Source of the DNA: Chiloscyllium plagiosum
Lineage: Eukaryota
NCBI RefSeq assembly: GCF_004010195.1
Contig: NC_057752.1
Coordinates: 7,631,651 to 7,695,650 of the forward strand
Length of the DNA: 64,000 nucleotides
Direction of reading: 5' to 3'
The notes under the pieces are model-generated. The model was not told where the DNA came from, did not search any database, and worked only from the letters and a program-made list of their open reading frames with translations. Made by a program: the position numbers and the translations under genes. Shown here one piece after another: positions 22,506-61,139 of this stretch. The stretch's first letter is position 1, and every line of letters starts with the position of its first letter.

Positions 22506-23220
22506 TTGGTGTAACTAGAAAAGGCCTAGCAAATGTACTCTCTTAAAATTCAGTTTTAACTTTGTGCCTCTGTCTATGATTCTAACTACCTGTCTGGCAT
22601 GAAGACTTGGATGAGTTGTAATTTACTCTACTTTCATGTTGATAAACTATTCTTTTGATTCCTAGCAACAAATCCAGACTTCTAGCCTTGACTGTATCAA
22701 CCTGCTCAGGAGTTACCTCAGGTTAAATATATAGGTCAATGCACAAGCTGGAATTTCTTCCTCACACCAATTCCAGAGCTCATTTAAAAAATGCCCCTAT
22801 CTTTCCCTACCACAGTCAGGACTTTAATCCATACCTTTATTGTCTTGAAGATCAACATCTCCAACATTATGTTGACTTGTACTATTCACAAGTTACAACT
22901 TGCAGCTACCATGGGTTAGATTTTACCAGCCTTCTGGATGCAGGCTGGGGATCTCATAAAACTGGTGGCAGAAGGCATCCCAAAGGCTTCCCAGTATCCT
23001 CTTGCTGAGGGACTAACAATAGCGAAACCCAACTGGTGGTGGGCAGCTAAGTAAGCCAGTTAATTGACCACTTTTACCAGTATAATGAAGGACACTCACC
23101 ATGTGGGTGTGGTGATTGTAACGAGGTCAGCCAGGTGGACCTCATAGAATATGAGTTCCCTAATTGGGGCTGTTAATCTGGTCAAATCAGGGAGCCCTGG
23201 CTGACTGATATAAACAGGAG

Positions 23221-23287
23221 ATTCAGAGTCTCCTCAGTTTAGGGGACTGACTCTGGTAAACTGTTTTGTAAATAAAAAAAAAAAAAA
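23221..23287 (+). mobile_element. Mini (head+tail only) copy of the non-autonomous LTR-targeting element
   Basis: 35-bp head ATTCAGAGTCTCCTCAG...GACTCTG fused to the tail GTAAACTGTTTTGTAAAT and poly(A), between two TATAAACAGGAG copies (23209-23220 and 23288-23299). Confidence 0.7.
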
Positions 23288-23299
23288 TATAAACAGGAG

Positions 23300-25237
23300 A
23301 TTCAGAGTCTTCTCAGTTTAAGAACTGACTCTGTGCTGGCTGGTGTTACAGTCAGTATGTTACTGTTAGTTTCTGCTTCCTTTTTTGAACTGGCTGAATT
23401 ATTTAGCCAGTTTGTTAACTGGCATTCCTTTTAGTGAGGACTGATTGTTAAATTCCTGATGCACACAATGTGTTTCAGGTGTAGCTCAGTTCTCATTAGG
23501 GGACTGTTGTTTCACTGGCTGGTTACAGCCTGTGTGTGACTCTTTTCGAGAAAAGGACAATGTTAATTTTGTGGTAGGGCTTAGCCCTTGGACTCTAGTT
23601 TCCTTTGTTTTTTGTGTAAGTGTCTTCACTGTTTTTGGTGTTTTGGACTGAGCCCTTGTGGAAGACCTACATTTTACCAGAGGAGCTGTTCCTGTGGGGA
23701 GGCCTAGCCCTGGGACTAGGCCTCTGAAGATTGAACACCTGTGTGTGCGCTGGGAGGTGAGCAGTTGCTGTATCCTGGAGTTTGGGAGAAGACCTTTCCT
23801 TCAGGAGTGGACTAAACCTGTGAGTTAACTGCACCTGTACTGTGTTCCTGTGAGTGGGCCTGGCTCTCCAAGGCTGGGCCAGGACTCCATGAAGGCTGAA
23901 CACCTAGGTGCTGTGGGGTGTACATTTGCTGCCTCCAGGAGTGGACTCTGCCCTTGGTTGCAGACTTTGTTTTTAGCAACGGACTCTGCAGTTTGGAGTG
24001 GACTCTAATTCTGACATTGCACATTGTATACTGGAGTGGACTCTTCCTGGAAATGGATTCCATATGTTGTGGTTCTGTTCGCCGAGCTGAAAGTTTTTGT
24101 TGCAAACGTTTCGTCCCCTGGCTAGGTGACATCATCAGTGCTTGGGAGCCTCCTGCAAAGCGCTTCTTTGATGTTTCCTCCGGTGTTTATAGTGGTCTGT
24201 CCCTGCCGCTTCCGGTTGTCAGTTTCAGCTGTCCGCTGTAGTGGTTGGTATATTGGGTCCAGGTCGATGTGTTTGTTGATGGAATTTGTGGATGAATGCC
24301 ATGCCTCTAGGAATTCCCTGGCTGTTCTGTCTGGCTTGCCCCACGATAGTAGTGTTGTCCCAGTCGAACACACGCAGACAACAAGCAACATGAATTCGAC
24401 TGGGACAACACTACTATCGTGGGGCAAGCCAGACAGAGAACAGCCAGATGGTGGGTAGGCCGTTCTGAGCACTGTCGTCCCGATAAGGTGTACTCGGGAC
24501 GGGCTGTCCTAGAGGTGGTCGAAAGGTGTCCGAGCAGCCGAGAGCCAGAAGGTGCGTAGGGGCGGGCTGAGATCCGGAAGGCTTGTGGGCTACCCTGCAC
24601 GCTGTCGTCCCAGGGAAGGGGACGGGCTGTCCTAGAGGTGGCTGAAAGGTGTGCCAGGGTAGCCCACTGGTCAGAGGCGCAACGGGGTGGGTGAGAGCCC
24701 AATGGTACATAGGGGCAGACTGAGAGCCAGAAGGCGGGTAGCCGTCCTCAGCGCTGTCACCCCAGGCAGGTACCGGGGCAGGCTGCCCCAGAGGTGGTCG
24801 AAAGGTGCTGAGGGTGGTTACTGAAGCCGGAAGGTGGGTAGGCTGTCCTGACCGCTGTCACCCCAGGCGGGTACCAGGGTGGGCTGTCCTAGAGGTGGTA
24901 GAAAAGTGTGTCAGGGCGGACCGAGAGCCGGAAGGTGTGTAGGGGCGGGCTGCCTTAGAGTGGTCGGAAGGTGGGAGGCTCGTGGGCTTGCTGGGTCTGT
25001 ATTGTCTACATTTTTATTATGTAACTGGATTGTCTTATGTATAACGGTCATTGTTGCTGTCTTTTTATATTTGAAACTGGGAATTGTGGTTTGTCCTTAT
25101 TTCCCTGTAAACTGGTTGAACAGTAGGCTTGGGGCCTAGCTTTGCTGCTCCTCTCCCTTGTAAAATTGCTGTTGTATACAGCTGTATATGTTAACTGTTT
25201 TTCTGTAAACAGGTTTGTAGTTTGTTTAATAAAATAT
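23300..25237 (+). mobile_element. Non-autonomous, apparently non-coding A-tailed element, copy 1
   Basis: Highly similar to the reverse complements of 51971-53701 and 58332-60420; ends TTTAATAAAATAT, followed by TATAAACCGGAGT. Confidence 0.85.
24062..24448 (-). mobile_element. Penelope-like 3' fragment (GIY-YIG C-terminus, pLTR with hammerhead motif) with terminal hairpin
   Basis: REFLEAWHSSTNSINKHIDLDPIYQPL on minus; hammerhead core at 24102-24141; inverted repeat 24318-24448. Confidence 0.85.
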
Positions 25238-25250
25238 TATAAACCGGAGT

Positions 25251-25569
25251 CTCCGGGAGAGGTGGGCGCCGCAGGGAGTGGAGTGCATTATTTCCCCCTC
25301 CAACTCTGTTTTGATTTAATCCCTGCCCTCCTTTCACTGTTTGATCACACAGCATTGCCCTTTGATGTGCTTGTCACTGGCCACCCGGGTGTTTCCTTTC
25401 TTCCTGGTGGTGGAAATTTGAATAAAGATTCGTGCACTTTGTGTCTTTCACTGTGTCTCACACCTACACATACACACACACAACATGGGTACTCAGGGAA
25501 AAAAAAATAAGCGCTACCACAGTTAGGCAGTAGTGTGGGGGTAATGAATAATAAAAAAAGTTTTTAAAA
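25251..25569 (+). mobile_element. 5'-truncated Tx1-clade-like LINE 3' end (ORF2 C-terminus, 3' UTR, A-rich tail)
   Basis: 25251-25319 encodes LRERWAPQGVECIISPSNSVLI*, which resembles Tx1-clade ORF2 C-termini as I recall them; then AATAAA and an A-rich tail, followed by ATAAATAGGAGT. Confidence 0.65.
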
Positions 25570-25697
25570 ATAAATAGGAGTGGTTCTGTTCACTCTGAGA
25601 GCTGGCTCTGAGGGAGCTGGATCAGTGTCAAGGACTCTCTACTTGTAAATAAAGGGTGACTTGATGACGGGATACCAACCTCTGTGGAGTTATTTCA

Positions 25698-27200
25698 GTA
25701 TGACAAGAGTGGGATGTGACTTTGGCTAAAGCAGAGTGTAAATACATCCAGATAGAGAAGGAAGGTTTGACGGTCATATTTGGTGTGACAAAGTTCCACC
25801 AATACCTTTACGGATGTGAATTTGTAATAATAATGGACCACAAACCCCTGCTAGGTCTAATTAAAGAGGACAAGATAGTGCTGCCCATAGCTTCAGGCCA
25901 AGTTCAGCAGTGGGCTGTAATATTAAGTGCATATAAATACAACTTGGAACACTGTCCAGGAGGCCAAGTAGTGCATGTGGATGCATTGAGCCGCCTCCCA
26001 TTGGCCCATACACCACTGGTGGTACTGTCACTTGAACAGTCCGTAACTTTTAAAATTTTCTAGGCACCCTTCCAGTCACAGCTGACACTATCAGACTTTG
26101 GATGCAGAAAGATCCAGTCCTGACAAAACTGAAACCGCTGGTGGGGATGGAGGAAACCAACAGGTTGTCATAACCAGAATCAAAACAAGATCACCGTAGA
26201 GGATGTCATTAGTATGGGGAGCAAGGGTGATTGTCCCAAGCAAAGGTCACCACCAGATATTGGCTGAACTCCACCAGGGTCATCTGGGATGTCCAAAGTG
26301 AAGGTGTTGTGAGAAGTTATGTCGGGTGGCCAGGATCGCTGCGTTGGTGGGGCAGTGTCCAGGTGCTAACAAGGGCAAAAATTACTGCCAGCAGCTTCCC
26401 CATTTATGGGAATGGCTGGGTAAACCTGGATTTGTTTACATGTTGACTATGCAGGTCCTTTCATGGGCTTAATGTTCTTCGTCATTGTGGATGCCCACTC
26501 TAAGTGGTTGGATGTGCGTAGAGTTTACTTGTCAAACATAGGGATGATGATAGAAAACCTGCAAGCATCTTCTGCAGTACACAGACTCCTAAAAGTGTTG
26601 GTCACAGGTAACAGGCCACTGTTTACCAGCAAGGAATTTGTGTCTTTCCTAAAGTTGAATAGTATTCAACGTGGTAAGGACAGCTCTAAGCCATCCATCA
26701 TCCAATAGTCTGGCAGAAACAGCTACCCAAACTTTGAAGGCAGGCTTAAATAAACAGCCTACAGTTTCACTAGATACCGAAGTGTCCCGGTTCCAATTTG
26801 ATTATAAGACCACCCCTCATGCAGCTACATGGGTTGGCTCCAGCATAGTTGCTAATGGGGAGAAGGCTCTGCACCAGGTTAGGTCTGATCTTCCAGGGCC
26901 TGGCAGGCAGGGGTGAAATGGCATCAGGAGCTTCAATGCCAGAAACTAGACTCCGCTAAACGAGAGAGATAGTTTACTTCAGGGGGCGAAGTTTGGTGTA
27001 GGAATCTCAGGAATGGCCCTCCATGGGTAAGAGGCATGGCCGATGCGAGGCAGGGCCAGTGACATATAAAATTTGATATATAAAGATGCGATGGTCCTGA
27101 ACAAGCACATGGCTCATATGAAAGCTCCAAGCTCACAGACAGTGCAGGAGCAAAAATGTGCCCTGTTCCTTAACAGCATTCCAACTATTCCAGAACCCGT
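25698..27200 (+). mobile_element. Gypsy A internal remnant (RNase H + integrase); gag/PR/RT deleted
   Basis: YIQIEKEGLTVIFGVTKFHQYLYG...DHKPL...DALSRLPL; DYAGPFMG.MFFVIVDAHSKW; HPSSNSLAE. Confidence 0.9.
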
Positions 27201-40791: not shown

Positions 40792-40929
40792 ATGGCGGTG
40801 GCCACATACCGGACGTCTACCGCTTCCCTGCTCGCTATGTCCTGCGGTAGCGTCCAGCCCAGGCCCTCGGCACCCAGCACCTCCCCGACCCTGGTCACCC
40901 TCGCTGCCACGGCCCTCCCCTCCGACAAC
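40792..40929 (-). mobile_element. 5'-truncated Tx1-clade-like LINE ORF2 fragment inserted in the Gypsy B 3' LTR (continues into gap)
   Basis: GC-rich open frame LSEGRAVAARVTRVGEVLGAEGLGWTLPQDIA..., resembling the post-RT 'G.TRV.DLL....W' region of Tx1/L1-type ORF2; starts right after GATATAAACAGGAGTGT. Confidence 0.55.
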
Positions 40930-43900
40930 ACACTCCTGTTTATATCTGTCAGCCAGGGCTCCCTGATTGGACCAGCTTAACAGCCCCAATCAGGGAACTC
41001 ATATTCTATGCGGTCCACTTGGCTGACCTTGTCACAATCACTACATCCCTCTTCTTCTGTGTCTGAGAACATAGGCCATTTCTTTTCCCTGTATTTCCTC
41101 CTGGGGCATTTTAGCACGGATCAGGTTCCTCTGACTCTGCCTCTGATATGGATGACGTGTAACACACAGTAGTTCACCTCTTGTGCCCAAAGCATCTTGG
41201 AAGAAATTCATTCTCTTCTTCAGGCGGCAAAGGCGTTGAGGTGGCGATATCCATTGTGTCCATCTCAGATTCCGAGGTTTCTTCAACGCTTGATGGAAAG
41301 GAAGAGCCCACAGGTTGTACAACTGTCAGAAAGGCTTTTGAGGAACTGGGCATGTTTTGCTCCTGCACTGTTTGGGAGTTTGCAGCTTTCATATGGTTCA
41401 TGTGCTTGTTCAGGACAGTCGCACCTACCCAAACATTATACATCACTGGACCTGAGCTTGCGTTGATCAGTCCTCTTACCCATGCAGGGCCATTCCTGTG
41501 ATTCTGAAACGAAACTTCATCCCCTGAAGTAAACCGTCTCTCATGCTTGTGTCCAGCACTGGCATTCCTGGTTTCAATTTCGCCCTGCTCCCCCCAGGTC
41601 TGGGAAGATGAGATTTAACTTGGTGCAGAGTCTTCTCCGCATGAGCAACAATGCTGGAGCTATCCCTGTAGTTGTATAAGGGGTGGTCCTGCAATCAAGT
41701 AGAAACTGGGACAGTTTGGTATCTTGAGAAGCTGTAGGCTGTTTCTTCAAGCCAGCCTTCAAAGTTTGGACTGTTACTTCTGCCAGACCATTGGATGATG
41801 GATGGTGTGGAGCTGTCCTTATATGCGAATTCCATTTGACTTTAGGAAATACTCAAATTCCCTGCTGGTAAACAACATCTGTGACTAACACCTCTGGGAG
41901 TCCATGCATTGCTAAAGATGCACACAGTTTTTCTATCATCATCCCTGTATGTGATGAATGAACTCTATGCACGTCCAGCCACTTTCAGTGAGCAACCACA
42001 ATGATTAAGAACAATGACCCCATGAAAGGACCAGCACAGTCGATGTGTAACCAAATCCAGGGTTTATCTGGCCAGTCTCACAAATATGGAGGAGCTGCTG
42101 GTGGTAAATTCTGTCCTTGTTAGCACTCTGGGTACTGCCTCACCAATGCGTCCATGTCTGCATCCAATTCTGGCCACCAGACATAACCTCTCACCACCAT
42201 CTTCATTTTGGACACCCCTGGATGACCCTGGTGGCATTCAGCCAGTATCTGACAGCAAACTTTGCTCGGGACAATCACTCTTGCTCCACATAATAATGTG
42301 CTATTCCCTGACTGTGCTCTGGTCTCTCTGGGTCCAAAAACATTTCAGTTCTATTTGTTTCTCCCATCACCACCAGCTGTTTCAGTTTTGCCAGGACTGG
42401 ATCTTTCTGCGTCCTAAGTCTGATATCGTCAGCTGTAACTGGAAGTGTATCCAGAAAATTTAAAACCATCATGGGCTCTTCTAGTGGCGGTACCACTGGT
42501 GGTGTATCTGCCAATGAGAGGGGGCTCAGTGCATTCGCATTCGCTACTCAGCCTGCCAGACTGTGTTCCAACTTGTAATTATATGCACTTAGTATTAGAG
42601 CCCATTGCTGAATTCAACCTGAAGCTAAGGGTGGCACTGGCTAGTTCTCTTTAATTAAACCAAGTAGGGGTGTGTGGTCTGGTATTATTAAAAATTTCCA
42701 TCCATAAAGGTATTGGTAGAACATCCTGACTCCAAATATGACCGCCATTTCTTTCTTCTCTACCTGGGGGTATTAATGCTCTGCATTAGCCAAAGTCCTG
42801 GATGCATATGTCATTGGGCAGTCCTCTCCACTAGGCCACCTATGAGCTAGTACCACCTTAATACTGTATGGGGAGGCATCATATGTCAATACCAGATCTT
42901 TCTTGGGATCATTGTGGGCCAGCACATTAGAGAATGAGAGCTGTTCCTTTACTTCACTGGAAGCTATGATTTGGCTACACGATCATTTCCAAGATTGACC
43001 CCTTTTTTAGGAATTGGTACAACGGTGCCAGGATGGAGGCCAGGTTATGTATGAACTTTCTGTAATAATTCACCAAACCAAGGAAAGACCTAAGCCCTGG
43101 TACAGATTTGGGAGCCAGGACACCTTTGATCACTCTCATTTTATCTTCCAACAGGTATAACCCGGTCTTGTCAACTCTGTTGCTCACCTTGGGGTGCCTG
43201 AAACATATGTTTTTACCTTCTAAGGTGTTTAAGCACTATGTCCAAAGTGAGAAATGTTTAAGCACTATGTCCAAGTTCTCTAAGGGCTCCTTATTGGTCT
43301 TCCCTGTTATTAGCACATCATCTAGATAAATGGAGACCTGGATAGACCTTGTAAAATGTTGTCCATCATTCACTGAAAAATGGCTCAGGCTGAAGATACC
43401 CCTAAAGGCAGTCTCGTATATTGGGATAAACCCTTATGGTTATTAATTGTTGCATACTACTGGGAATCCTCATCTAACCAAAATTGCAAGTATGCATGGC
43501 AAGCTTTGTGAAGGACAGCTCCCCTTGCCAGCATTGTGTATAAATCCTCTGCGGGAGGGATTGGGTATTTATCCAGCTGTGAAAAGCGGTTTACCATTTG
43601 TTTCAAATCCCCTCAAAGGCGAACCGACTCATCAGGCTTCACAATCGATACGACCAGTGCTGCCCATTCCACAAACTGGATTGGTTTGATGGTTCCTTCA
43701 CTTTCCAGCCTCCTGATTTCTGCCTCTACTTTTGCCCGTGAAGCAAATGGCACCAGGCAGGCCTTGCAGAATCATGGAATTGTTTCCTTGTCAACCTTCA
43801 AGATGGCCTTGGCTCCTTTGATAGTCCTTAGACCTTCCTGAAAAACCTTTGTGTATTTAATTAGGACTTCACTCAGGCAGCCATTTTCTAATCAAAAAAT

Positions 43901-45082
43901 GTTGAGCCAATCAAGGTGAATCTTTCTCAACCAATTCCACCCCATCCAGCTTGGGCCTGAGCCTTTTACTACAATCAGTGGGAACTGAACCAGCTGCTTC
44001 TCATAAGGGACCAGAACCGAAGTTGTACCCTTGATCTGTAAAGGTTCCCCGGTATAGGTTCTCAGTCTAGCCGAGGTCTTGCACAAAGGGCTGGAGTCCA
44101 GAGTGGATTTTGTTAAAGACTGGTTCAGCGATCACTGATACAGCCGTGCCGGTATCAACCTCCATTTGAACCGGGTGACCATTTAACCAGACGTTTATTT
44201 TGATCGATTCTGTTTGGATGTTGCTAAGCAATTTAACTGCTCCAAACCAGATGTAGATAGGCTTTCCAGGGTGTGCACTCTCCTGAATACCGGCCTATGA
44301 ATTATCTTACTCAATTCAGGCCTAGTGGGACTCTTACTGTCTCGAGTCCACATATTGGCAGCAACTACAATGGCTTACCAGCCCAGATCCTGAAGAAGAT
44401 GTTAACCATTTAGCTGAGGCTTGGCTTTGTTCTGGGATTTTGCTGTGGGCTGATCTAGAATCCCTCTGTTCAGGATATGTCCTGAGTGATGCTATGCAAT
44501 TGCCTTCACTCAATTGGTATTCCCTAAGTTCAGTCAGACTGGCGAGGGTGTCCACTTCCATTGGAATACCCTGCAACTCATATGCTCCACTTGCTACATT
44601 TTCTAATACAAAGCCAGTTGTAGGGCCAATTTGAAGTCCAGTTGAGTTTCAGCTAGTAGACACTTTTGCATGGTCACATCATTAATTCTACATACCAAAT
44701 GGTCTCTCAGCATCTCATTTAGGATTAAACCAAAGTCACATGCCTCTGCCAATCATCTTAACCTAGTCAAAACTCTTGAAAAAAGATTCCCTTTGGTATC
44801 AAATTTCTGAGTAAAACCAATAGCATCTCTGAATAAGAGGAGGCTTGGGGTCATAATATCCCTTAACTAAATATGTCAATTCTAGAAAAGGTTTAATGTT
44901 TGGTGCCTCAGGAAACATTAGGCTCCTAATAACTGAAAAGGCTGTGGGTCCACAAGCTGTCAGGAGAATTACTTGTTGCTTTTCATTGCCCCAACGTCAT
45001 TTGCCCAGAAAAGTAACGCATTCTTTTCATATACCGGAAGAGGACTTTGCTGGAGTGCTGTGGGTTTGAAGCAGTGGACGTG

Positions 45083-45131
45083 ATACTTACCTGTGGCCTT
45101 TTGGCTAAGATCAAGTGTCTGTTCTTATCAG
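45083..45131 (+). other. Chimeric U1 + U2 snRNA-derived segment
   Basis: ATACTTACCTG = U1 nt 1-11; GGCCTTTTGGCTAAGATCAAGTGT + CTGTTCTTATCAG = U2 nt 11-34 and 40-52 (vertebrate sequences from memory). Confidence 0.85.
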
Positions 45132-45289
45132 GACAGGGGTCAAGTTGTGAGTCATCAGAGCTAGTGGAGATCATCGCTGGATTGTGATTGGACATTGGAG
45201 GATCGCTTGGTTGTGCTGACCTGCTATTGGTGAATCTTCATGCTGGCTTCGGCCTAACGCCAATTCAGGGACCAGCCAACCTCAGAGCT

Positions 45290-46549
45290 ATGGCCTTAAC
45301 AGCTGCCCGCAGCCCTGGGCAGGAGGTTCGAAACACAGTCCAGGTGTCTGTGAAGAAGGTAGAGGGTCGTACACCGGTGGATTGCATCCTGTTTATTAAG
45401 AAAGTGCTGCTGGGATGCTGTGGGTTCGCTGCAGCGGACGTGGCTGCTGGGATGCTGTGGGTTCGCTGCAGCGGACGTGTACTGCCTGCAGGATTTCCCT
45501 GGGGCAGACTACTTTGATGTGACCTTCAGGAGTGTGAAGCAGTGCGAACAGCTCCTGAAGGTCTTCAAGGAGAAGGAAGGGGAGCCGCTGTTCTCCATCT
45601 TGTCGGCAACCCCATTGTGTGTGCTTCCTGCACAGAGGAATCGGGTTGTTACAATCCATATGTACAACCCCTATGTTCCAGCGGCTGACGTCCTGACCTT
45701 CCTGACGTGGCGGCAGACTGCAAGGTGACCATCTGCAGGAACTGCAAACAGGAGGGTCACCTGACTAAGGACTGTCAGGAAGCAAAGAGCTGCAACCTGT
45801 GCGGAGAGGCGGGTCACATGTACAAGACCTGCCCAAGACGCGGGGGCCCCAGTTGCGCACAGATGGCTGGAGGTGGCAATGTGAGCCGTGGACCCCCAAA
45901 GACCAGTAAGGTCCACACAGACAGCAGGGAAACGGAGTCTGGTGGCACCCAGAAAGAAGAACAGGCCGGAGTGGCAACCAGCGGAGAGACACAGCAGCTG
46001 ATCCTAGCTCTCGCTGGGCAGATGGAAGCAATGGAGGAGGAGGTAATCGAGCAGACAGAGGAGTGGATACCTGTTAAAAACAGGAAGAGAAAATCCGGCC
46101 AGGCCCCCAAAGCCTCCCAGCAAAGGGGGAAAAGACAGCTGAACGAGGGAGGGACGGCCAGCTCTTCAGATGTGGAAGACGGGCGCACAGAATGTCATCA
46201 CCACCAGAAGAAGAGACAGAGCGCCATAGCTAAAGAGGAGGGCATCTCCTCCCAACCAGGAAACAACAGACCCCCCGAAGTCCACCTTCCACCCAATGAG
46301 AACCAGGGGGTACCCACTGCCCCACAACTACAGACAACTGAGAGCTGTGATCCTCTGACAGTCCCATTGTCAGACACAGAACTGGACGGTGCGGACCCTT
46401 GCCTTGGCTCGATGACTCCAGAGCAGGTAAATGACCCCAGTGAGAGCCTGGATAGCTACCTCAGCCCAGCGAGGGTCCAGCAGTTCGTGCTCACCATGGG
46501 GATGCAGACAGGTACCCCAGATACAGGACAGTCAAATGGACAACGGTAA
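45290..46549 (+). pseudogene. Tx1-type ORF1 / ZCCHC3-like zinc-knuckle protein, frameshifted
   Basis: MALTAARSPGQEVRNTVQV...DVYCLQDFPGADYFDVTF...VTIHMYNPYVP; CRNCKQEGHLTKDC and CNLCGEAGHMYKTC (CX2CX4HX4C); 37-bp duplication and an internal deletion near 45705. Confidence 0.82.
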
Positions 46550-46976
46550 CCCCATAAACTGGGATTAAAAAAGGTTCATTTGCTATAGTATAACAGGGCA
46601 CCCACTCAGTAGGTGGGTTCTGCTGAAGCCACAGCTAAATAATAAGAGACTGGGAATAATAATAAAGGGAACTGTAAATAGGATAACTGTAAATTCGAGT
46701 AATTCAATCTGTTCTTTGTAATGTTAAGACATGCAAAGTTTATATCTATGAATGACATGACAAATTGTACAAGTACCAAAGATTTATTTCTAAGAATAAA
46801 ATATATTTTGAAATATAAAAAAAATTCTTTCCATATACTGGGCCCAGTCTTTGATGGCAGGATTGAACGAGTCAAGCTTCCCAAACGATGGCATGATGCC
46901 AGAAATGCTTATCACAACTTAAAGACAATTGTTGCGAGTGAATCTCTTCAGGAGTGTGCTTTTCACTTGTTGCCAC

Positions 46977-47212
46977 TGAAATAACTCCACAGAGGCCGGT
47001 ATCTCATCACTAAGTCCCCCTTTATTTACACATGGAGAGTCCTTGACACTGATCCAGCTCCCTCAGAGTCAGCTCTCAGAGTGAACAGAACCTCTGACCC
47101 TCCTGTTTCTATCTGTCAGCCAGGGCTCCCTAATTGGACTAGATTAACAGCGCCAATCATGGAACTCATATTCTATGAGATCTACCTGGCTGACCTCGTT
47201 ACAATCATCACA
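46977..47212 (-). repeat. Intact (empty) Gypsy LTR, 236 bp
   Basis: TG...CA termini, AATAAA, adjacent PBS; reference copy for the interrupted LTRs. Confidence 0.9.
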
Positions 47213-47584
47213 TGATACAGGAATGTAATATTGTTCTGAATAGATATATTAAGATGGGTCAGATGGTCTTCCTTAACTGTAAATACATTTTAAAAAGGCT
47301 AATATACTCTGTGCAAAGGTGTTTTTTATACACCTTGATCAATGATATATCCTTTTGATAAAACTAGCCAGTCTGTTCTTTTAAGACAAGATATTATCGA
47401 TGAGTAACATGAGATCTACTTCAGACCTAGAACGCATTCCATCTGTCCCTGAACTAAAAGCCAACAAACAGAATTACAGTGTCATGTTGTTGGGGTTCAT
47501 TCCTACAGTAGATATTTTCTTTTAAACAAATTAAATAATAGATAAGTAAACAGCCTTTACATTTTTATAGAACAGAATGTTTAT

Positions 47585-51465: not shown

Positions 51466-51970
51466 ATTGTCCTAACTCGCCAGCAATTTTTTAAAAAAGA
51501 ATTATTTTCATGGTATCTCGGTCAGGAAAAAGCCAGATGCGAAATAATGAGACTTGCTGCTACCATGGATCATTGGGCTGGCACATCCAATGACTCAGTT
51601 AGTCAACTGTGGCCACACTTGAGGTTTCCATTCCCTTAATTTCTGTCCATCACTTTTACATCCAAGCCACTTCAGAATTGATCCAATTTTTCCACTCCGT
51701 CCACTAATGTGCTCTCTTTGCCAGTTACAGCCAATGCAAATAAGCAAACCAAGGATGTGTACTCTGAGCACATTATTAGTCAGTGGTGTCAGAGCCATTT
51801 TTTAAATCATGCCCGATTTGTTTATGCTAGTAGAGGAGAATCAGCTCCCCCTGTTTACTGAATAAATAAAATACAGTCTGGGAACTGAAATAACTCCACA
51901 GAGGCTGCTATCACGTCAGCATGTCATCCTTTATTTACAGATGAACAGTATCACTGACACTCCTATTTAT

Positions 51971-53701
51971 TTTTTTAAATTTTATTAAACATTTACAAAA
52001 GAGTTTACAGAAAAACAGTTAACATTTACAGCTGTATACAACAGCAATTTTACAAGGGAGAGGAGCAGCAAAGCCAGGCCCCAAACCCGACCGTTCAACC
52101 AGTTTACAGGGAAATGAGGACAAACCACAAATCCCAGTTTCAAATGTACCAATGTCATTGTTGATGTCTTTGCATAGGAGACAATCCTGTTACATAGGAA
52201 AGTGCAGACAATACAGACCCAGCAAGCCCCCGTGCCTCCCACCTTCCGGCCACTCTAAGGCAGCCCGCCCCTACGCTGCTCCTGGCTCTCGGCCCAGCCC
52301 ATGCCTCTACCAGTTCTTGGTCCACCCTGACACACCTTACAACCACCTCTCGGACAGCCCACCCCCGTACCTGCCCGAGGTGACAGCACTGAGGATGGCT
52401 ACCCGCCTTCTGGCTCTCGGTCTGCCCCTACGTACCATTGGACTCTCACCCACCCCGATGCGCCGTCCGACCAGTGGGCTATCCTGACACACCTTCCGGC
52501 CAGCCCTCTAGGACAGCCCATCCCTTACCTGGGATGACAGCGTGCAGGGTAGCCCACAAACCTTTTGGATCTCAGCCTGCCCCTATGCGCCTTCTGGCTC
52601 TCAGCTGCTCTGACACACCTTCCGACCACCTCTAGGACAGCCTGTCCCGAGCATCCCTTCTCGGGACGACAGTGCTCAGAATGGTCTACCCACCATCTGG
52701 CTCTCGGGGCGACTGGCATCAGGGTGGCCTACCCACCCTCCGGCCCTCAGGGTGACAGCTTTCAGGACGACCCATGAGGCTCCCAGCTCACAGTAAGGCC
52801 TGCCAGACCCAGGGACACACAAGACAGTGCAAGTGATAGACCCAACAAATGCCACAATACAGTTAATTACCAAAAAACACAGAGTCCTTTCTGGTGCACA
52901 CAGAGTCCAGATATAGAGTCTTCAAAGTGTAGAGTCCATTCTCAGGAACAGAGTCCACTCCAGTTTTTGAGGTGCATTGTCCAAAATGGAGTCCACTCCA
53001 AATGGTAGAGTTCACGCCTGAAGGCAGCAAATGCACACCCCACAGCACACAGGTGTTCAGTCTCCACGGAGTCCTGACCCAGCCTTGGAAAACCAGGCCC
53101 ACTCACAGGAACAGTACATTGTACAGGTGCAGTTAACTCACAGGTTTGGTCCACTCCCAAAGGGAAGGTCTTCACCCAAACTCCAGGATACAGCAACTGC
53201 TCACCTCCCAGCGCACACACAGGTGTTCAATCTTCAGAGGCCTAGTCCCAGGGCTAGGCCTCCCCACAGGAACAGCTCCTCTGGTAAAATGTATGTCTTC
53301 CACAAGGGCTCAGTCCAAAACACCAAAAACAGTGAAGACACTTACACAAAAAACAAAGGAAACTAGAGTCCAAGGGCTAAGCCCTACCACAAAATTAACA
53401 TTGTCCTTTTCTCAGAAAGAGAAAGGAGAGAAAAGAGTAACACACAGGCTGTAACCAGCCAGTGAAACAACAGTCCCCTAATGAGAACTGAGCTACACCT
53501 GAAACACATTATGCACATCAGGAGTTTAACAATCAGTCCTCACTAAAAGGAATGCCAGTTAACAAACTGGCTAAATAATTCAGCCAGTTCAGGAATCAGG
53601 TTTCCCCCTCAAAAAAAAGGAAGCAGAAACTAACAGTAACATACTGATTGTAGCACCAACCAGCACAGAGTCAGTCCCCCTAAATTGAGGAGACTCTGAA
53701 T
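51971..53701 (-). mobile_element. Non-autonomous A-tailed element, copy 2
   Basis: Flanked on both sides by ATAAATAGGAG (minus; 53702-53712 and 51960-51970); same head and tail as copy 1. Confidence 0.88.
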
Positions 53702-53976
53702 CTCCTATTTATATCTGTCAGCCAGGGCTCCCTGGTTGGACCAGATTAACAGCCCCAATCAGGGAACTCATTCTATGAGATCCATGTGGCTGACCTCGTT
53801 ACAGTCTGAGGATATACGCTGGTCCTTTTGCTTGGAGAGCCTCCTGGGGCGTTTTAGCACCAGGTCAGGTTCCTCCGACCAGATATCTGACATGGACGGC
53901 ATGTTGCGCCAGGCACGCCTTGGTAGAATTTCTCTCTTTTTCCGGCATCAAACGTATTGAGGTGACTACATCAGTG

Positions 53977-54300
53977 GGCGGCACGGTGGCACAGTGGTTA
54001 GCACTGCTGCCTCACAGCGCCAGAGACCCGGGTTCAATTCCCGCCTCAGGTGACTGACTGTGTGGAGTTTGCACATTCTCCCCGTGTCTGCATGGGTTTC
54101 CTCCGGGTGCTCCGGTTTCCTCCCACAGTCCAAAAAATGTGCAGATTAGGTGAATTGACCATGCTAAATTGCCTGTAGTGTTAGGTGCAGGGGTAAATGT
54201 AGGGGAATGGGTCTGGGTGGGTGCGCTTCAGCGGGTCGGTGTGGACTTGTTGGGCCGAAGGGCCTGTTTCCACACTGTTAGTAATCTAATCTAATCTAAT
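53977..54300 (+). mobile_element. HE1-like V-SINE (tRNA head, V domain, CR1-type tail)
   Basis: GGCACGGTGGCACAGTGGTTAGC...GGGTTCAATTCC; TGTGTGGAGTTTGCACATTCTCCCCGTGTCTGC...GGGTGCTCCGGTTTCCTCCCAC; GGGCCGAAGGGCCTGTTTCC followed by (TAATC)n. Confidence 0.9.
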
Positions 54301-56254
54301 CATGTCCATCTCTGATTCAGAGGACTCGACAACGCTTGATGGACAGAGTGAATCTATGGGCACCGGCAGCATTTCAGAATGGTCTGAGGAGCCGGGCATG
54401 TCTTACTCCCGCACAATTCGCAAAATTGCACCTTTCATCTGGTTCACATGCTTGTTCAGGACCATCGCTGCTAGCCGAATTTTATATGTCACTGGACCTG
54501 ACCTCGTGTTGACCATGCCTCTTACACCAAACTGTCTCTTTCACTTGGGTGGAGTCTTATTTCTGGGATTATTGTTTGTGATGCTTTTTCATCCTCCATC
54601 CCCAGGTCTGGGAAGATCAGAGCTAACCTGGTGCGGTGCCTTCTCCCCATTAGTGACTCTGCCAATGCTATCCCTGTAGTTGCACGAGGGGTGGTCCTAT
54701 AATCAAACAGGAACCAGGACAGTTTGGTAACTAGTGAAACTGTAGGCTGTTTCTTCAATCCAGCCTTCAAGTTTGGACAGCTTTTAATGCCAGGCCATCG
54801 GATGATGGGTGGTATGGAGCCATCCTTATATGTTGAATCCCACTCAACATTAGGAAATACCCATATTCCCTGCTGGTAAGTGATGGCCCATTTTCTGTGG
54901 CCAACAGCTTCAAGACTCCATGTGTAGAAAAAGATGTGCACAGTTTTCCTTCTGTGATCCCAGTGTTTGACGAATGGACCCGATACACGTCCAACCACTT
55001 TGGGCATCTACAATGAGTACGAACATTCAGTCCATGAAAGGACCGGCATAGTCGATGTGCCACTGTGTCCAAGGTTTACCCAATCATTCCCACAGATGTG
55101 GGGGAACTGCTGGCAGTAATCTTTGTTCTTGTTGGCACTCTGGGCACTGCCCCACCAATGTGACTATGTTTATATGTAGACCTGATCACCAGACATAACT
55201 TCGCACCATCATCTTCACTTTGGATACCCCTGGATGGCCCTGGTGGAGATCAGCCAGTGTTTGACAGCAACCTTTGTTCAGGATGATCACTCTCACTCCC
55301 ATAACAATATGTCATCCTCTACCAGGAGCTGGACTCTCTGGGTCCAAAAAGGTTTTGATTCTAGTTGTGACAGGCCTTTGGTTTCCCCATTAATACCAGT
55401 TGTTTCAATTTTGCCAGGGCAGGGTCTTTCTGCATCCAAAGTCCAATCTTGTCAGCTGTGATTGGGATTGTGTCCAGAAAATTTAATCCCTTTACAGACT
55501 CTTCCATTGGGGGTACCACTGATGATGGACCTACTAATGGGAGGGAGCTCAATGCTTCCACATTTGCTAATCGGCCTCCTGGATGGTGGTCCAACTTGTA
55601 ATTACAAGCACTTATTCTTAAAGACCACCGTTGAATGTGGCCTGAAACTATGGGCAGCGCTGCCTTGTCCTCTTTAAGCATACCATGTAAGGGTTTGTGG
55701 TCCGTACTTATCATATATTTTCATCCATAAAGGTTTTGGTGGAATGTACTGACTCCAAATACAACTGCCAATCCTTCTATTTCTATCTGGGCGTATTTAT
55801 GCTTTGCATTCACCCAAGTCCTGGATGCATGCGCTATTGGGCATTCCTCTCCACTGGGCCTCCTCTGATCTAATACCACTTCGATGCTGTATAGGAAGGC
55901 ATTGCACGTCAATACCAGATTTCACTTGGGATCATAAATGTGCCAATGCCTGAGAGGATGATAGCTGTGTCTTCACTTTCCTGAAGACAATGGCTTGGCT
56001 ATGCAACCATTTCAAAAGCTGACCCTTTTTTAAGATGCAAAGATGCCAGGATGGAGGCCAGGTTATGTCTGAACTTTCTGTAATAATTCACCAACCCAAG
56101 GAAAGCTCCAGTACAGATGTGGGAACCAGGACGCCTTTAATCACCCTCACTTTATTTCCAATGGGTGTAACCTGGTTTTGTCGACTCTGTAGCCCAATTA
56201 GGTCACTTGGGGTGCCTGGAACAAATAATTTTCCCTTCTCAGTCATACACCTCA

Positions 56255-57080
56255 TACAGTCATAGTATCATGGAGATGTACAGCATGGGAACAGATCTTT
56301 TGGTCCTACCTGTTCGTGCCGACCAGATATGCTAAATAAATCCAGTCCCCTTTGCCAGCAGTTGGACCATATCCCTCTAAACCCATCCTAATCATATACC
56401 CATCCAGATGCCTTTGAAATGTTGCAATTGTACTAGCCTCCACCACTTCCTCTGGCAGCTCATTCCATACACATACCACCCTCTGCATGAAAAACTTGCC
56501 CCTTAGGCCCATTTTAAATCTTCCCCCTGTCACCTTAAATCTATGCCCTCTAGTTTTGGACTCCCCCACCCCAGGTAAAATATCTTATTTACCTTACCTG
56601 TGCCCCTCATGATTTTATAAAACTCTATAAGGTCATCCCTCAGCCTCTGACGCTCCAGGGAAAATAGCCCCAGCCTATTCAGCCTGTCTCTACCCAGTCT
56701 CCAACCCTGGCAACATGCTTGTAAATCTTTTCTACACCCTTTCAAGTTTCACAACATCCTTCCTATTGCAGGAGACCAGAATTGCACGCAGTATTCCAAA
56801 GGGTGCCTAACAGCCACAACATGACCTCCTAACTACTATACTCTATGCTCTGACCAATAAAGGAAAGCATACTAAATACTTTCTTCACTATCCTATCATT
56901 GTTCCACTTTCAAGGGACTATGAACCTGCACTCCAAGGTCTCTTTGTTCAGCAACACTCCCTAGGACCTGACCATTAAGTGTATAAGATTTGCTTTCCCA
57001 AAATGCAGCACCTCGCATTTATCTAAATTAAACTCCATCTGCCACTCTTTGGCCCATTGGCCCATCTGATCAAGATCCCG
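56255..57080 (-). mobile_element. CR1 3' fragment nested in Gypsy C RT
   Basis: KTRGHRFKV, FFMQRVVCVWNELPEEVVEA; same family as 5300-7900. Confidence 0.9.
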
Positions 57081-58331
57081 CTTGCCTTAGAAAAACACCT
57101 TAGGACTACATCCAAGTTCTCTAAGTGTTCCTTATTAGTTTTCCCTGTTATTAGGACATCATCTAGATAAATGACGACCTGCGGTAGACCTTGCAAAATG
57201 CTCTCCATCATCCGCTGAAAAATTAAATAGGCAGAAGTTACCCCAAATGGCAGTCTTGTATGTTGCTACTAACCCTTATGGAAACCCTTCTGGGAACCCT
57301 CATTTAACCACAATTGCAAATACACATGGCTCATATCCAGCTTCATGAAAGACAGCCCACCCCCACCCCCAGCCAGCATTGTGTATAAATCCTCTGTGCG
57401 AGGCATTGGGTATTTACCCAGCTGTGAGAAGCGGTTTACCAGTTGTTTAAAATCCTCACAAAGGCAAACTAACCCGTTGGGCTTCACAATCAGTACAACT
57501 GGTACTGCCCATTCCACAAACTGGATGGGTTTGATGATTCCTTCACTTTCCAACCTCTGATTTCTGACTCTACTTTTGCCCATAAGGCAAATGGCACTGG
57601 ACGGGTCTTGCAGAATCGTGGAATTGCTTCCTGGTCAATATGTAAGGTGACCTTGGCTCCTTTGATAGTCCCTAGACCTTCCTGAAAAACATATAGGTAT
57701 TTAATTAGGACTTCACCCAGGCAGTCATTTTCTAACTGAAAAATGTTAAGCCAATCAAAATGAATCTTTCTCAATTTCCCTCATTAAGCTTGGGCCTGAG
57801 TCTTTTACTACAACCAGTTGTAACTGAACCAGCTGCTTTTGATAAGAGACCGAAATCGAAGTTGTACTCTTAATCTGTAAAGGTTCTCTGGGATCAGTTC
57901 TCAGTCTCGCCGAGGTATTGCACAAACATATGGGTTGGAGACCAAAGTGAATTTTGTTCAAGACTGGTTCTGTAATCACTGAAACGGCTGCGCCGGTATC
58001 AACCTCCTTTAGAGCTGGGTGACCATTTAACCAGACGTTTATTTTGATTGGTTCTGATTTGGATGTTGCTAAGTAATTTAACTGTTCCAGACCAAATGCC
58101 ATGGGCTTTCCAGGGTGTGCACTCTCCTGGATACCAGCTGATGTGTTCTCTTACTCAACTCAGGTCTAATAGGACTCCTTTGCTATCTGAAGTCTGCATA
58201 CTGGCAACAACTACAATGGCTTGCTGTATCCATCACCAAGTCACCCTTTATTGACCGGTCCTTGACTTTTGTACTGCCTCATTCAGAATCAGGCACCAGA
58301 GTGTCAGCATCTCTGCAACTTCTCTTTTTAT

Positions 58332-60420
58332 TATTTTATTAAACAATTACAAAAGAGTTTACAGAAAAACAGTTAACATTTACAGCTGTATACAACAGCA
58401 ATTTTACAAGGGAGAGGAGCAGCAAAGCCAGGCCCCAAACCCTACCGTTCAACCAGTTTACAGGGAAATGAGGACAAACTACAAATCCCAGTTTCAAATA
58501 TGAAAAGACATCAACAATGACATTTCTACATGAGACAATCCTGTTACATAGGAACGTGCAGACAATACAGACCCAGCAAGCCCCCGTCCCTCTAAGGCAG
58601 CCCGCCCCTACTCACCTTCCGGCTCTCGATCCACCCCATGCCCCTTCCAGTTCTCGGTCCGCCCTGACACACCTTACGACCAGCTCTAGGACAGCCCATC
58701 CCGGTACCCGCCCGAGGTGACAGCGGTCAGGACGGCCTACCCACCTTCCGGCTTCACTAACCACCCTCAGCACCTTTCGACCACCTCTCGGACAGCCCGC
58801 CATGATACCTGCCCAGGGTGACACCACTGAGGACGGCTACCTGCCTTCTGGCTCTTGGTCTGCCCCTACGTACCATTGGGCTCTCACCCACCCAAATGCA
58901 CCATCCGGCCTGTGAACTGCCCTGACACACCTTCCAGCCACCTCTAGGACAGCCCGTCCCCTTCCCCAGGGACGACAGCGTGCAGGGTAGCCCATAAGCC
59001 TTCCGGATCTCAGCCTGCCCCTACGCACCTTCTGGCTCTTGGCTGCTCTGACGCCTCCCGACCACCTCTAGGACAGCCCATCCCTTCTCAGGGCGACAGC
59101 GCTCAGAACGGCGTACCCACCATATGGTTCTTGGGGTGACAGCTTTCAGGACGACCCATAAGGCTCCCAGCTCACAGTAAGGCCTGCCAGACCCAGGGAC
59201 ACACAAGACAGTACAAGTGATAGACCCAACTAACACCACAATACAGTTAATTACCAAAAAACAGAGTCCTTTCTGGTACACATTCCAAATATAGAGTCTT
59301 CAAAATATAGAGTCCATTTCCAGGAAGAGTCCACTCCAGTATACGATGTACATTGTCAGAAATAGAGTCCGCTCCAAACTGCAGAGTCCATTGCTAAAAA
59401 CAGAGTCCACAACCGAGGGCAAAGTCCACTCCTGGAGGCAGCAAATGCACACCCCACAGCACACAGGTGTTCAGTCTCAATGGAGTCCTGGCCCAGCCTT
59501 GGAGAGCCAGGCCCACTCACAGGAACACAGTACATAGTACAGGTGCAGTTAACTCACAGGGGTTTGGTCCATTCCTGAAGGAAAGGTCTTCTCCCAAACT
59601 CCAGGATACAGCAANNNNNNNNNNNNNNNNNNNNNNNNNNNNNNNNNNNNNNNNNNNNNNNNNNNNNNNNNNNNNNNNNNNNNNNNNNNNNNNNNNNNNN
59701 NNNNNNNNNNNNNNNNNNNNNNNNNNNNNNNNNNNNNNNNNNNNNNNNNNNNNNNNNNNNNNNNNNNNNNNNNNNNNNNNNNNNNNNNNNNNNNNNNNNN
59801 NNNNNNNNNNNNNNNNNNNNNNNNNNNNNNNNNNNNNNNNNNNNNNNNNNNNNNNNNNNNNNNNNNNNNNNNNNNNNNNNNNNNNNNNNNNNNNNNNNNN
59901 NNNNNNNNNNNNNNNNNNNNNNNNNNNNNNNNNNNNNNNNNNNNNNNNNNNNNNNNNNNNNNNNNNNNNNNNNNNNNNNNNNNNNNNNNNNNNNNNNNNN
60001 NNNNNNNNNNNNNNNNNNNNNNNNNNNNNNNNNNNNNNNNNNNNNNNNNNNNNNNNNNNNNNNNNNNNNNNNNNNNNNNNNNNNNNNNNNNNNNNNNNNN
60101 NNNNNNNNNNNNNNNNNNNNNNNNNNNNNNNNNNNNNNNNNNNNNNNNNNNNNNNNNNNNNNACAGGCTGTAACCAGCCAGTGAAACAACAGTCCCCTAA
60201 TGAGAACTGAGCTACACCTGAAACACATTGTGTGCATCAGGAGTTTAACAATCAGTCCTCACTAAAAGGAATGCCAGTTAACAAACTGGCTAAATAATTC
60301 AGCCAGTTCAGGAATCAGGTTTCCCCCTCCCAAAAAAAGGAAGCAGAAACTAACAGTAACATACTGACTGTAAAACCAACCAGCACAGAGTCAGTCCCCC
60401 AAACTGAGGAGACTCTGAAT
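58332..60420 (-). mobile_element. Non-autonomous A-tailed element, copy 3 (spans gap)
   Basis: Head follows TATAAACAGGAG (60421-60432); tail TTTAATAAAATAATAAAAA; body homologous to copies 1 and 2. Confidence 0.85.
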
Positions 60421-61139
60421 CTCCTGTTTATATCAGTCAGCCAGGGCTCCCTGATTTGACCAGATTAACAGCCTCAATCAGGGAACTCAGAATCTATGAG
60501 GTCCACCTGGCTGACCTCATATCATCACTGCAGGAACAATTTGGCCTGGCCTGGTCATATAGAGGTGTTGAGAATGAAGCTACTGAATACAAAACAATCT
60601 CTGAAATTGCACTACTACTGTTGACTCACTTAGCTATGTAGTCCACTATTTGGTTTTGGCAGAGGTTGTGTAGTAATATGAGTGCACTGAGAGCTATGAA
60701 AATAGCATAATTGAATTAAATATGATGAAAATGGAATTATTATATGGCCTTAAGGCATTTGGAATCACATTTTGTGTTCCTCATTTTTCGTGGCAGCAAA
60801 TACTCAGGAAATAAGTCCTTTTTTGATTTAACTAGCAATTTCTCTTTTGTCTGTGGTGGCCAATCAAATTGTTACTGTACAAGCACACTTGTAGTGACAT
60901 TGTAACTTTGTAATTTACGACTTCTATGTGGTAGCTTTATATATTGGTTGCTACATCCTAACTAATTTTATGGTCAGTTATTCCATCTTGATGATATTGT
61001 GGCATTGTAATTTACAACTTCTAATTAATTATTGAATTGAACTGGGTATACATTAGTATACATTTAGTATACATTTAGAAACTGAGGTGCAAATAAAAGT
61101 TACAGTTAGCTGTATATCACCATTACCCTGCAGGGAGTC

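Follow-up and report, generated by a model that had tools for sequence, protein, structure and literature searches.

Keno, described by Kojima and Fujiwara in 2004, is reportedly a U2-specific LINE of the Tx1 clade. It inserts 37 nt into U2 (PMC6136364, available part), and the 3′ flank that it has in common with Utopia begins at U2 nt 39, according to the available part of PMC4640811. Tx1 elements with heads derived from snRNA have already been published from crocodilians as Tx1-Mar and SINEU; in the available text of that study no promoter-like sequence was found and the transcription of SINEU was left open (PMC4494074). LINE derivatives that keep ORF1 are also known, and their list, in the accessible portions of two sources, names no Tx1-clade case (PMC5786205, PMC5753468).

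Here we analyze an insert at positions 45038–46823 of the window, which is the whole 64,000-nt stretch of Chiloscyllium plagiosum DNA under study (NC_057752.1, positions 7,631,651 to 7,695,650, forward strand). Genome-wide searches covered the 3.56-Gb genome. It proves to be a dead and decayed member of a family that has ORF1 only. This family and both of its insertion targets are firm, and the decoy-promoter mechanism that we propose for it stands at about even odds.

Results

Anatomy of the insert

The insert lies antisense within the start of the first ORF of a decayed, Gypsy-like LTR element, splitting this first reading frame, which begins at 46894. The preliminary description placed the insertion in Gypsy gag; the LTR host and its first ORF are upheld, and the gag label is a tentative one, given for a likeness to gag N-termini. 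The features are listed below by window position.

40930..47213, − strand: host LTR retrotransposon, Gypsy-like, decayed (reading frames, LTR-like repeat, weak integrase match)
45020..45037, + strand: left target-site duplication, 16/18 bases identical to 46824–46841
45038..45082, + strand: ORF1-derived leader, ~+1 to +45 of the predicted internal start site of a C-type sister element
45083..45093, + strand: U1 snRNA nt 1–11, exact match to U1 gene copies, specific to this copy
45094..45131, + strand: U2 head, nt 10/11–34 joined to nt 40–52, family-wide, with a 5-nt gap
45132..45289, + strand: 5′ UTR, common to long and short families
45290..46549, + strand: ORF1 with two ZCCHC3-type RNA-binding domains, CCHC knuckles and a low-complexity tail, broken here
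45338..45356, + strand: PSE-like 19-mer in the first ORF1 codons, a degraded variant at the position homologous to the siblings' 11.8–16-bit word
45406..45479, + strand: 37-nt tandem duplication that ends at this copy's own hot-spot position (from sequence)
46550..46823, + strand: short-family 3′ UTR of ~270 nt with poly(A) signal and A tail, 67–80% like the long partner's 3′ UTR
46824..46841, + strand: right target-site duplication, 18 nt with two mismatches to 45020–45037

The initial view of an A-tailed insert bounded by target-site duplications holds, with 16 of 18 duplicated bases identical, a poly(A) signal at 46795–46800 and an A run reaching 46823. So do the claims of U1 nt 1–11 in the head, matched exactly at 45083–45093, and of a U2 piece missing 5 nt, as the gap is displayed by the Rfam U2 alignment (22.9 bits, E 0.084, under the gathering score). 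The gap (nt 35–39) takes out the insertion point of Keno and Utopia. The 8 bases 3′ of the U2 head had been called U1-like, which is not assignable to U1 with confidence; they may be the remnant of the U1 relic that sister heads carry, or else the body of the element may begin with them.

With ~110 copies, an 11/11 U1 match at a head junction would arise by chance with a probability of ~5e-4. The U1(1–11)+U2 junction has one exact match genome-wide, which is this copy. Thus, the chimeric U1+U2 head in this order, proposed earlier as a family trait, belongs to this copy, and other mixed U1/U2 heads occur in sister subfamilies. The U1 11-mer resembles ORF1 and could be read as ORF1 sequence that continues in decayed form, but this reading is disfavored because it takes three edits versus none, and also by the U1-headed copies at the same site (L145, L148, L250 and L322).

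ORF1 of the insert matches Pfam RBD_ZCCHC3_1st (E 3e-12) and zf-CCHC, and the insert is without ORF2, in agreement with the ZCCHC3/CCHC ORF lacking ORF2 that was first noted. In this copy, ORF1 is disrupted by the 37-nt tandem duplication and by a ~212-nt deletion at 45704/45705.

The 45-nt leader at 45038–45082 was left uninterpreted in the preliminary description, where the ORF1 self-target behind a PSE-like word likewise went unnoticed. Its translation is part of the first RNA-binding domain of the C-type sister ORF1, and its 3′ end falls within the family's ORF1 insertion hot spot. Similar ORF1 leaders, with differing 3′ junctions, are present at 12 other loci.

An ORF1-only family and its long partner

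The U2 head with the 5-nt gap has 96 exact 32-mer matches genome-wide, and these 96 head-bearing loci were retrieved for family comparison. Assembly gaps are numerous inside the elements, and many sibling loci are gapped. The loci sort into long elements of ~5.2 kb, which have Exo_endo_phos (endonuclease), RVT_1 and zf-RVT domains, and short elements of ~1.9 kb, which have ORF1 only.

The junction of the short ORF1 stop with the 3′ UTR is matched 175 times genome-wide (≤2 mismatches). Among retrieved loci, the ORF1 stop is joined to the short 3′ UTR in 45 (44 distinct), and an S-type ORF1 end followed by ORF2 was found in 0 of 97 loci. The 16 short-family (S) rows of ORF1 form one clade (100/100, 566 columns), separate from the L and C clades of long elements. 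L054, L080 and L100 are short copies of full length that contain no gaps and have individual target duplications, and L054 has an open ORF1 of 477 aa. The expected multi-copy, protein-coding family without ORF2 and with an snRNA-derived head is therefore real, by the 175 junctions and 96 head matches.

The head and 5′ UTR are common to the short and long families, and their 3′ UTRs are 67–80% alike, from which it follows that the short family arose via loss of all ORF2. As in other non-autonomous LINEs with ORF1, ORF1 is kept and ORF2 absent in many copies, and the ends are homologous to those of a partner. The short family is an ORF1-only non-autonomous derivative of a U2-headed Tx1/Keno-like LINE that retains ORF2. 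The domain layout, with a CCHC/ZCCHC3-type ORF1 and with APE, RT and zf-RVT in the partner's ORF2, points to membership in the Tx1 clade. The closest named relatives of ORF1 are from sharks and rays; Heterodontus, Mobula and sturgeon are among the sources of relatives.

Sister subfamilies carry U1 heads, U1/U2 heads or the layered head C, which consists of U2-variant nt 1–38, an ORF1 leader and U1 nt 9–27. In family C, the leader and U1 layer is fixed in many copies. An intact U2 5′ end has been regained in four copies. Full-length copies often have an additional G ahead of U2 nt 1, which looks untemplated and was seen in 20 of 29 cases; a G ahead of transcript nt 1 is the expected trace of a cap, as known for L1.

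Selection on ORF1 and RNA reads

The preliminary description had called for dN/dS of ORF1. When the N-terminal 240 codons are compared between the short and long families, dN is 0.056 and dS is 0.68, giving a ratio w of 0.08, which indicates purifying selection. Within the short family, w is 0.35 for variants in at least three copies versus 0.69 for singletons (p 0.0007), a contrast that has p 0.04 without CpG-type sites and is not significant in every sub-region. The short-family ORF1 has been under purifying selection after ORF2 loss.

In a poly(A) single-cell RNA run, which captures 3′ ends, 717 reads align to a stretch with the short 3′ part and the long 5′ part. The depth peaks at ~250 on the short 3′ UTR versus <5 elsewhere, and 203 reads end in poly(A) at the tail. 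Because most reads are 90–95% alike, they may come from a related subfamily. In a second RNA run, 0 reads aligned to the short/long family stretch.

Insertion into U1 genes

Ten junctions of family tails with U1 were found, at U1 nt 37–42 or with U1 nt 40–51 as a spacer. In L193–L198 and L304, tails meet U1 at nt 37–42; in L201, the alignment puts the meeting point at nt 35. L304 is a clean insertion, ordered as U1 1–46, element and U1 37–164, and in L302 and L303 U1 nt 40–51 stands as a spacer between tandem tails. Short-family tails are at three U1 junctions, against an expectation of 1e-5. The 13 matches of the tail–U1 pattern search comprise five verified U1 loci, four spacers of U1 40–51 (three in L302 and one in L303), one chance match, one doubtful match and two without inspection.

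Copies in real U1 loci with an upstream PSE, which had been suggested as something to look for, do occur: a whole U1 gene with a PSE upstream is present at L193, L196 and L209. Promoterless U1 copies were uninterrupted in six of six cases, but these had been chosen as whole matches. In the 12 U4 loci, which were also selected as whole matches, no tail is at +37. None of the 120 tails in hand, a sample not aimed at U2, was classed as U2. Of the successive targeting of U2 and U1 genes proposed at the outset, the U1 part is confirmed by the tails at nt 37–42, and U2 is represented as a Keno-like leader. We make no claim of long target duplications in U1 arrays, where the flanks before and after differ.

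Insertion into the family's own ORF1

Family tails adjoin the 16-mer at the ORF1 site 54 times genome-wide, whereas 0.003 is expected from 320 site 16-mers and 3247 tails, an approximate figure as tail words vary in length. A control 16-mer ~70 nt downstream, similarly common, has 0 tail junctions. At many loci the host 5′ end continues to ~nt 350, the inserted copy follows, and then the host resumes; among the 22 ORF1-site loci retrieved, several have both ends, with duplications of 6–16 nt. Long and short elements alike are inserted at this site. The source region of the 45038–45082 fragment is an insertion hot spot of the family within its own ORF1.

Because ~98% of insertions are outside the U1 and ORF1 targets, the insertion aim is a strong preference rather than strict specificity. 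Strict U2 specificity of the Keno type does not apply either, as ~98% of tails are elsewhere.

A PSE-like word and a common register

A PSE matrix was made from nine sites of this genome's U1, U2, U2-variant and U4 genes, three being U1 and two U4. Real PSEs score 5.8–16.4 bits when left out one at a time, and the background rate of scores of at least 10 bits is 2e-4. In the first codons of the C-type ORF1, the matrix finds a 19-mer of 16.0 bits (13.5 bits in one host), which is the top match in 420 nt of five out of five hosts. A PSE guessed by eye at −60 was discarded for its score of −5.8 bits; the matrix word is 6 nt further upstream.

The PSE-like word sits 61–62 nt upstream of the common start of ORF1 leaders. 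When +1 is counted from 62 nt after the first base of the word, the short ORF1 leaders at 13 loci have their starts between −1 and +13 and their ends between +29 and +56, and nested 5′ junctions are at +28 to +58. The 54 ORF1-site nicks are at +36 to +44 with a mode of +39, comparable to U1 (+37) and to Keno in U2 (+38/39). By its sequence and spacing, with a PSE at ~−61 from the start, this arrangement is a candidate snRNA-type Pol II promoter. Among the 12 loci with the aimed pattern, 10 have the short ORF1 leader and only two are nested, so the leaders are carried along by the element, and this copy is one example.

Nesting was compared between hosts with stronger and weaker words. It occurs in 8 of 33 hosts with a stronger word (8–16 bits) versus 0 of 32 with a weaker one (≤7.5 bits; p 0.005), in a hand-curated count of hosts anchored by their own head, from which seven gap rows and the non-anchored hosts were dropped. 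An automated count gives 23/61 versus 6/37 (p 0.04). The test is confounded because weak-word hosts are younger (1.7% versus 2.5% divergence) and have one base different at the site. Among hosts selected by tail, the word is visible in 10, and in each of these it reaches at least 11.8 bits.

As a conserved peptide of ORF1 is encoded where the word lies, the PSE likeness may partly follow from codons. Only 1 of 55 un-nested copies begins at the predicted internal start, so there is no excess of such copies. The ORF1 site was also considered as a sequence mimic of the Keno site in U2, and this was rejected since the likeness is out of register with the nick.

Discussion

Proposed mechanism

That the short elements are an ORF1-only clade, that tails enter U1 at nt 37–42 and the ORF1 site, and that the long ORF2 mobilizes the short elements in trans are, taken jointly, highly probable. 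The long partner's ORF2 would act on the short RNA, as suggested by the targets, tail and duplication lengths shared with the long partner.

We conceive that insertion is aimed by position behind snRNA-type promoters, and that the ORF1 decoy lends a promoter and a target to the next copy; judged from the sequences, this has a little better than an even chance. The heads (U2 1–52, U1 pieces and ORF1 +1 to ~+50) would be the first bases of host transcripts, acquired when the host promoter's transcription reads through into a copy behind a PSE. The integration machinery may be tethered by SNAPc or a complex associated with it. The PSE-like word in ORF1 may then act as a decoy promoter, drawing new copies and transcribing them. 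For this copy, the layers would have been added in the order of U2 head, U1 1–11 and ORF1 leader, before landing in Gypsy. The U1 piece might stem from an insertion into a U1 gene or from a template switch; U1 1–11 is far shorter than the observed 46–52-nt U1 junctions.

In total, the insert reads as a dead ORF1-only Tx1 derivative that, with its long partners, inserts at U1 nt 37–42 and at its own ORF1 site, likely through a positional aim ~38 nt behind snRNA-type promoters and a PSE-like decoy, and we consider this account reasonably likely. A stronger form is possible, and we put it just short of even: the lineage would target ~+38 of SNAPc-bound promoters by position and not by sequence, a working snRNA promoter would be written into the ORF1 codons, and each full-length copy would be a landing pad and a promoter in one.

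Alternative explanations

Could a relaxed, sequence-specific, Keno-like APE read a short word common to U1 nt 37–42 and the ORF1 site, with the PSE likeness and equal distances being coincidental? Both sites do begin with GG-N-N-GT at the modal nick, the un-hit weak-word hosts are without the first G, and Tx1-clade targeting is usually ascribed to the endonuclease, as the available text of PMC4494074 has it. However, among 97 other insertion sites, none has the initial word of the two targets and only 3 begin with GG, which argues against an endonuclease that simply reads sequence. Some hit hosts lack GG but have a strong PSE word (L312 and L324), nicks are spread across 8–9 nt, the Keno site in U2, from partial sources, is a different sequence at the same distance, and the fixed leader start is left unexplained. 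We regard such an endonuclease as improbable. Exposure of the ORF1 site by a conventional Pol II promoter of the 5′ region, or by open chromatin there, with no SNAPc role, would suit the absence of an octamer-type distal element noticed by eye in the host 5′ region. It predicts neither the 61–62-nt spacing of a PSE-grade word nor the +37–39 register common to U1 and U2, and is quite improbable.

A different possibility accepts the targeting but has each insertion event gain its head or leader anew through template switching onto capped small RNAs (U1, U2 and an ORF1-internal RNA), as proposed for SINEU, and not by transcription running on from a host promoter. Almost every leader copy has a junction found nowhere else, and the search for source copies yielded none, so that per-event switching fits as well; U1 1–11 is found once, four copies have regained the intact U2 5′ end, and the same model was put forward by Kojima for the SINEU-2 extensions (PMC4494074, available part). 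On the other hand, leader 3′ ends match nested 5′ junctions, family C has fixed its leader and U1 layer in many copies, and switching still requires an RNA that begins at the ORF1 position, as the PSE word would lead one to expect. As a general explanation template switching is unlikely, if worth serious consideration, and it can be reconciled with the positional-aim account where only the U1 piece is concerned. Last, the locus could be a one-off chimera or an assembly artefact with a head and an ORF2-less junction unique to it. The U1 11-mer is indeed unique and many sibling loci have gaps, but the junction recurs 175 times, the short ORF1s have a clade of their own, and L054, L080 and L100 are free of gaps with separate duplications. 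Such an artefact has next to no probability and, except for the U1 piece, is refuted.

Comparison with known systems

In the literature searched, we found no ORF1-only Tx1 element, U1-targeting LINE, ORF-embedded PSE or ORF1 self-target, although a catalogued shark family could be in Repbase. With the shark family, the few ORF1-only LINE derivatives on record gain a member from the Tx1 clade. It also provides a non-LTR element entering U1 genes, for which the surveyed literature lists only Dada DNA transposons. Three unrelated targets, U1, U2 by descent and the family's own ORF1, are at an equal distance from an snRNA-type start, which points to promoter-tethered targeting in a vertebrate LINE. 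This bears on how snRNA-headed retroposons without an internal promoter are transcribed, the question left open for SINEU in the available part of PMC4494074. If true, the ORF1 promoter would let an element that has no promoter and relies on snRNA genes become independent of the few real U1/U2 genes, and the layered snRNA heads of SINEU, Tx1-Mar and Keno would be explained as captured leaders.

As far as the partial sources on Keno go, the shark family resembles it in being an APE-type, Tx1-like LINE that inserts ~37–38 nt into an snRNA gene, and its head equals U2 through nt 52, which is what a leader taken from a U2 gene would look like. Unlike Keno, its observed targets are U1 genes and its own ORF1 with ~98% of copies elsewhere, the shark head lacks the Keno site, and an ORF1-only derivative exists.

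With Tx1-Mar and SINEU, as described in the available part of PMC4494074, it shares layered U1/U2-derived heads, tandem insertions around a repeated duplication and a proposed transcription from flanking sequence. Those elements target Mariner-N4 or LTR elements, unlike the shark family. The U1/U2 head of SINEU is present here and the short non-coding body is not: SINEU encode no protein and are below ~500 bp, whereas the short shark element is 1.9 kb with a 477-aa ORF.

Two further snRNA-gene invaders differ in kind, by the available text on each. Utopia also targets snRNA genes, with intact snRNA genes upstream of insertions in arrays (Phytophthora), a layout also seen at the shark U1 loci, but uses a restriction-like endonuclease and a U2 target (PMC4640811). 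Dada-U1 targets an snRNA gene as well, but is a DNA transposon (PMC8869645).

Like HAL1 (L1), HeT-A (Jockey) and Ag-Sponge (CR1), the short family combines the 5′ part, ORF1 and 3′ part of an autonomous LINE without RT, going by the accessible portions of PMC5786205 and PMC5753468; unlike these three, it has snRNA heads and shares its partner's targets. It is not HAL1 proper, as its ORF1 is of the ZCCHC3/Tx1 type and not of the L1 clade. The closest parallel to the predicted promoter lending is HeT-A 'promoting in tandem', in which an ORF1-only element also has its promoter lent by a neighboring sister copy (PMC5537684, available part). According to the same text, the HeT-A promoter lies in the 3′ UTR of the upstream copy at telomeres, whereas the promoter predicted in the shark would be snRNA-type, lie inside ORF1 and need nesting.

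Head renewal and exchange

Several divergent U2 variants are present in the genome (L226-L244), and the one at L229 carries the snRNA promoter element (PSE) and has many promoterless copies. The layered head of family C (head C), which comprises U2-variant, ORF1-leader and U1 parts, derives from this L229 variant. The U2 branch-point stretch is intact in the heads at L171, L172, L174 and L176, one of which sits on a short-type body (that of the ~1.9-kb ORF1-only family). It seems that U2, as RNA or as genes, serves to renew the head.

Short-family bodies are also found with other heads: at L136, L148, L194 and L199 they carry head C or a U1 head fused to nt 185. Therefore, subfamilies exchange heads. 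In an older, U1-headed subfamily (L285-L287 and L312), the PSE match lies in the same ORF1 codons and is closer still, at 16.4 bits.

At L228 and L236, a U2-variant gene with a PSE is followed by ~220 nt of flank and then by a truncated long (ORF2-containing) element, whose tail continues into ORF1 from the hot spot, the insertion site inside the family's own ORF1, onward.

Duplications, stacks and neighbouring sequence

ORF1 of the window copy contains a 37-nt tandem duplication (45406-45479). Its end base is that of the 5′ leader and falls at the copy's own hot spot; the duplication may be a scar left by an aborted insertion or a leader that was inserted. Elsewhere, tails and full copies are stacked in tandem (L070, L074, L079, L098, L123 and L127); one short duplication recurs between the units, and the genomic sites are unrelated.

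A 434-aa open frame adjoining a long copy (L113:3-1304) looks like a host gene exon, presumably of a putative very large GTPase-like protein. Several related LTR-element copies occupy window 23100-27200, 40900-47200 and 51900-60500, with repeats in common in both orientations. The window also contains:

52300-52650, 51-nt repeats
58650-59090, 51-nt repeats

U1 gene arrays

Four tandem 42-nt tails with U1 nt 40-51 between them lie at L302:2700-2970, not within any U1 gene. In the U1 gene arrays (L193, L194, L196, L209, L178, L179 and L184), a frequent order is a whole U1 gene with 150-340 nt of 3′ flank, a 5′-truncated element, and U1 nt 37-164. Duplication and recombination are indistinguishable here because the flanks differ. 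The intact U1 kept in front in these arrays resembles the arrangement described for Utopia in Phytophthora, where an intact snRNA gene is retained ahead of the insertion.
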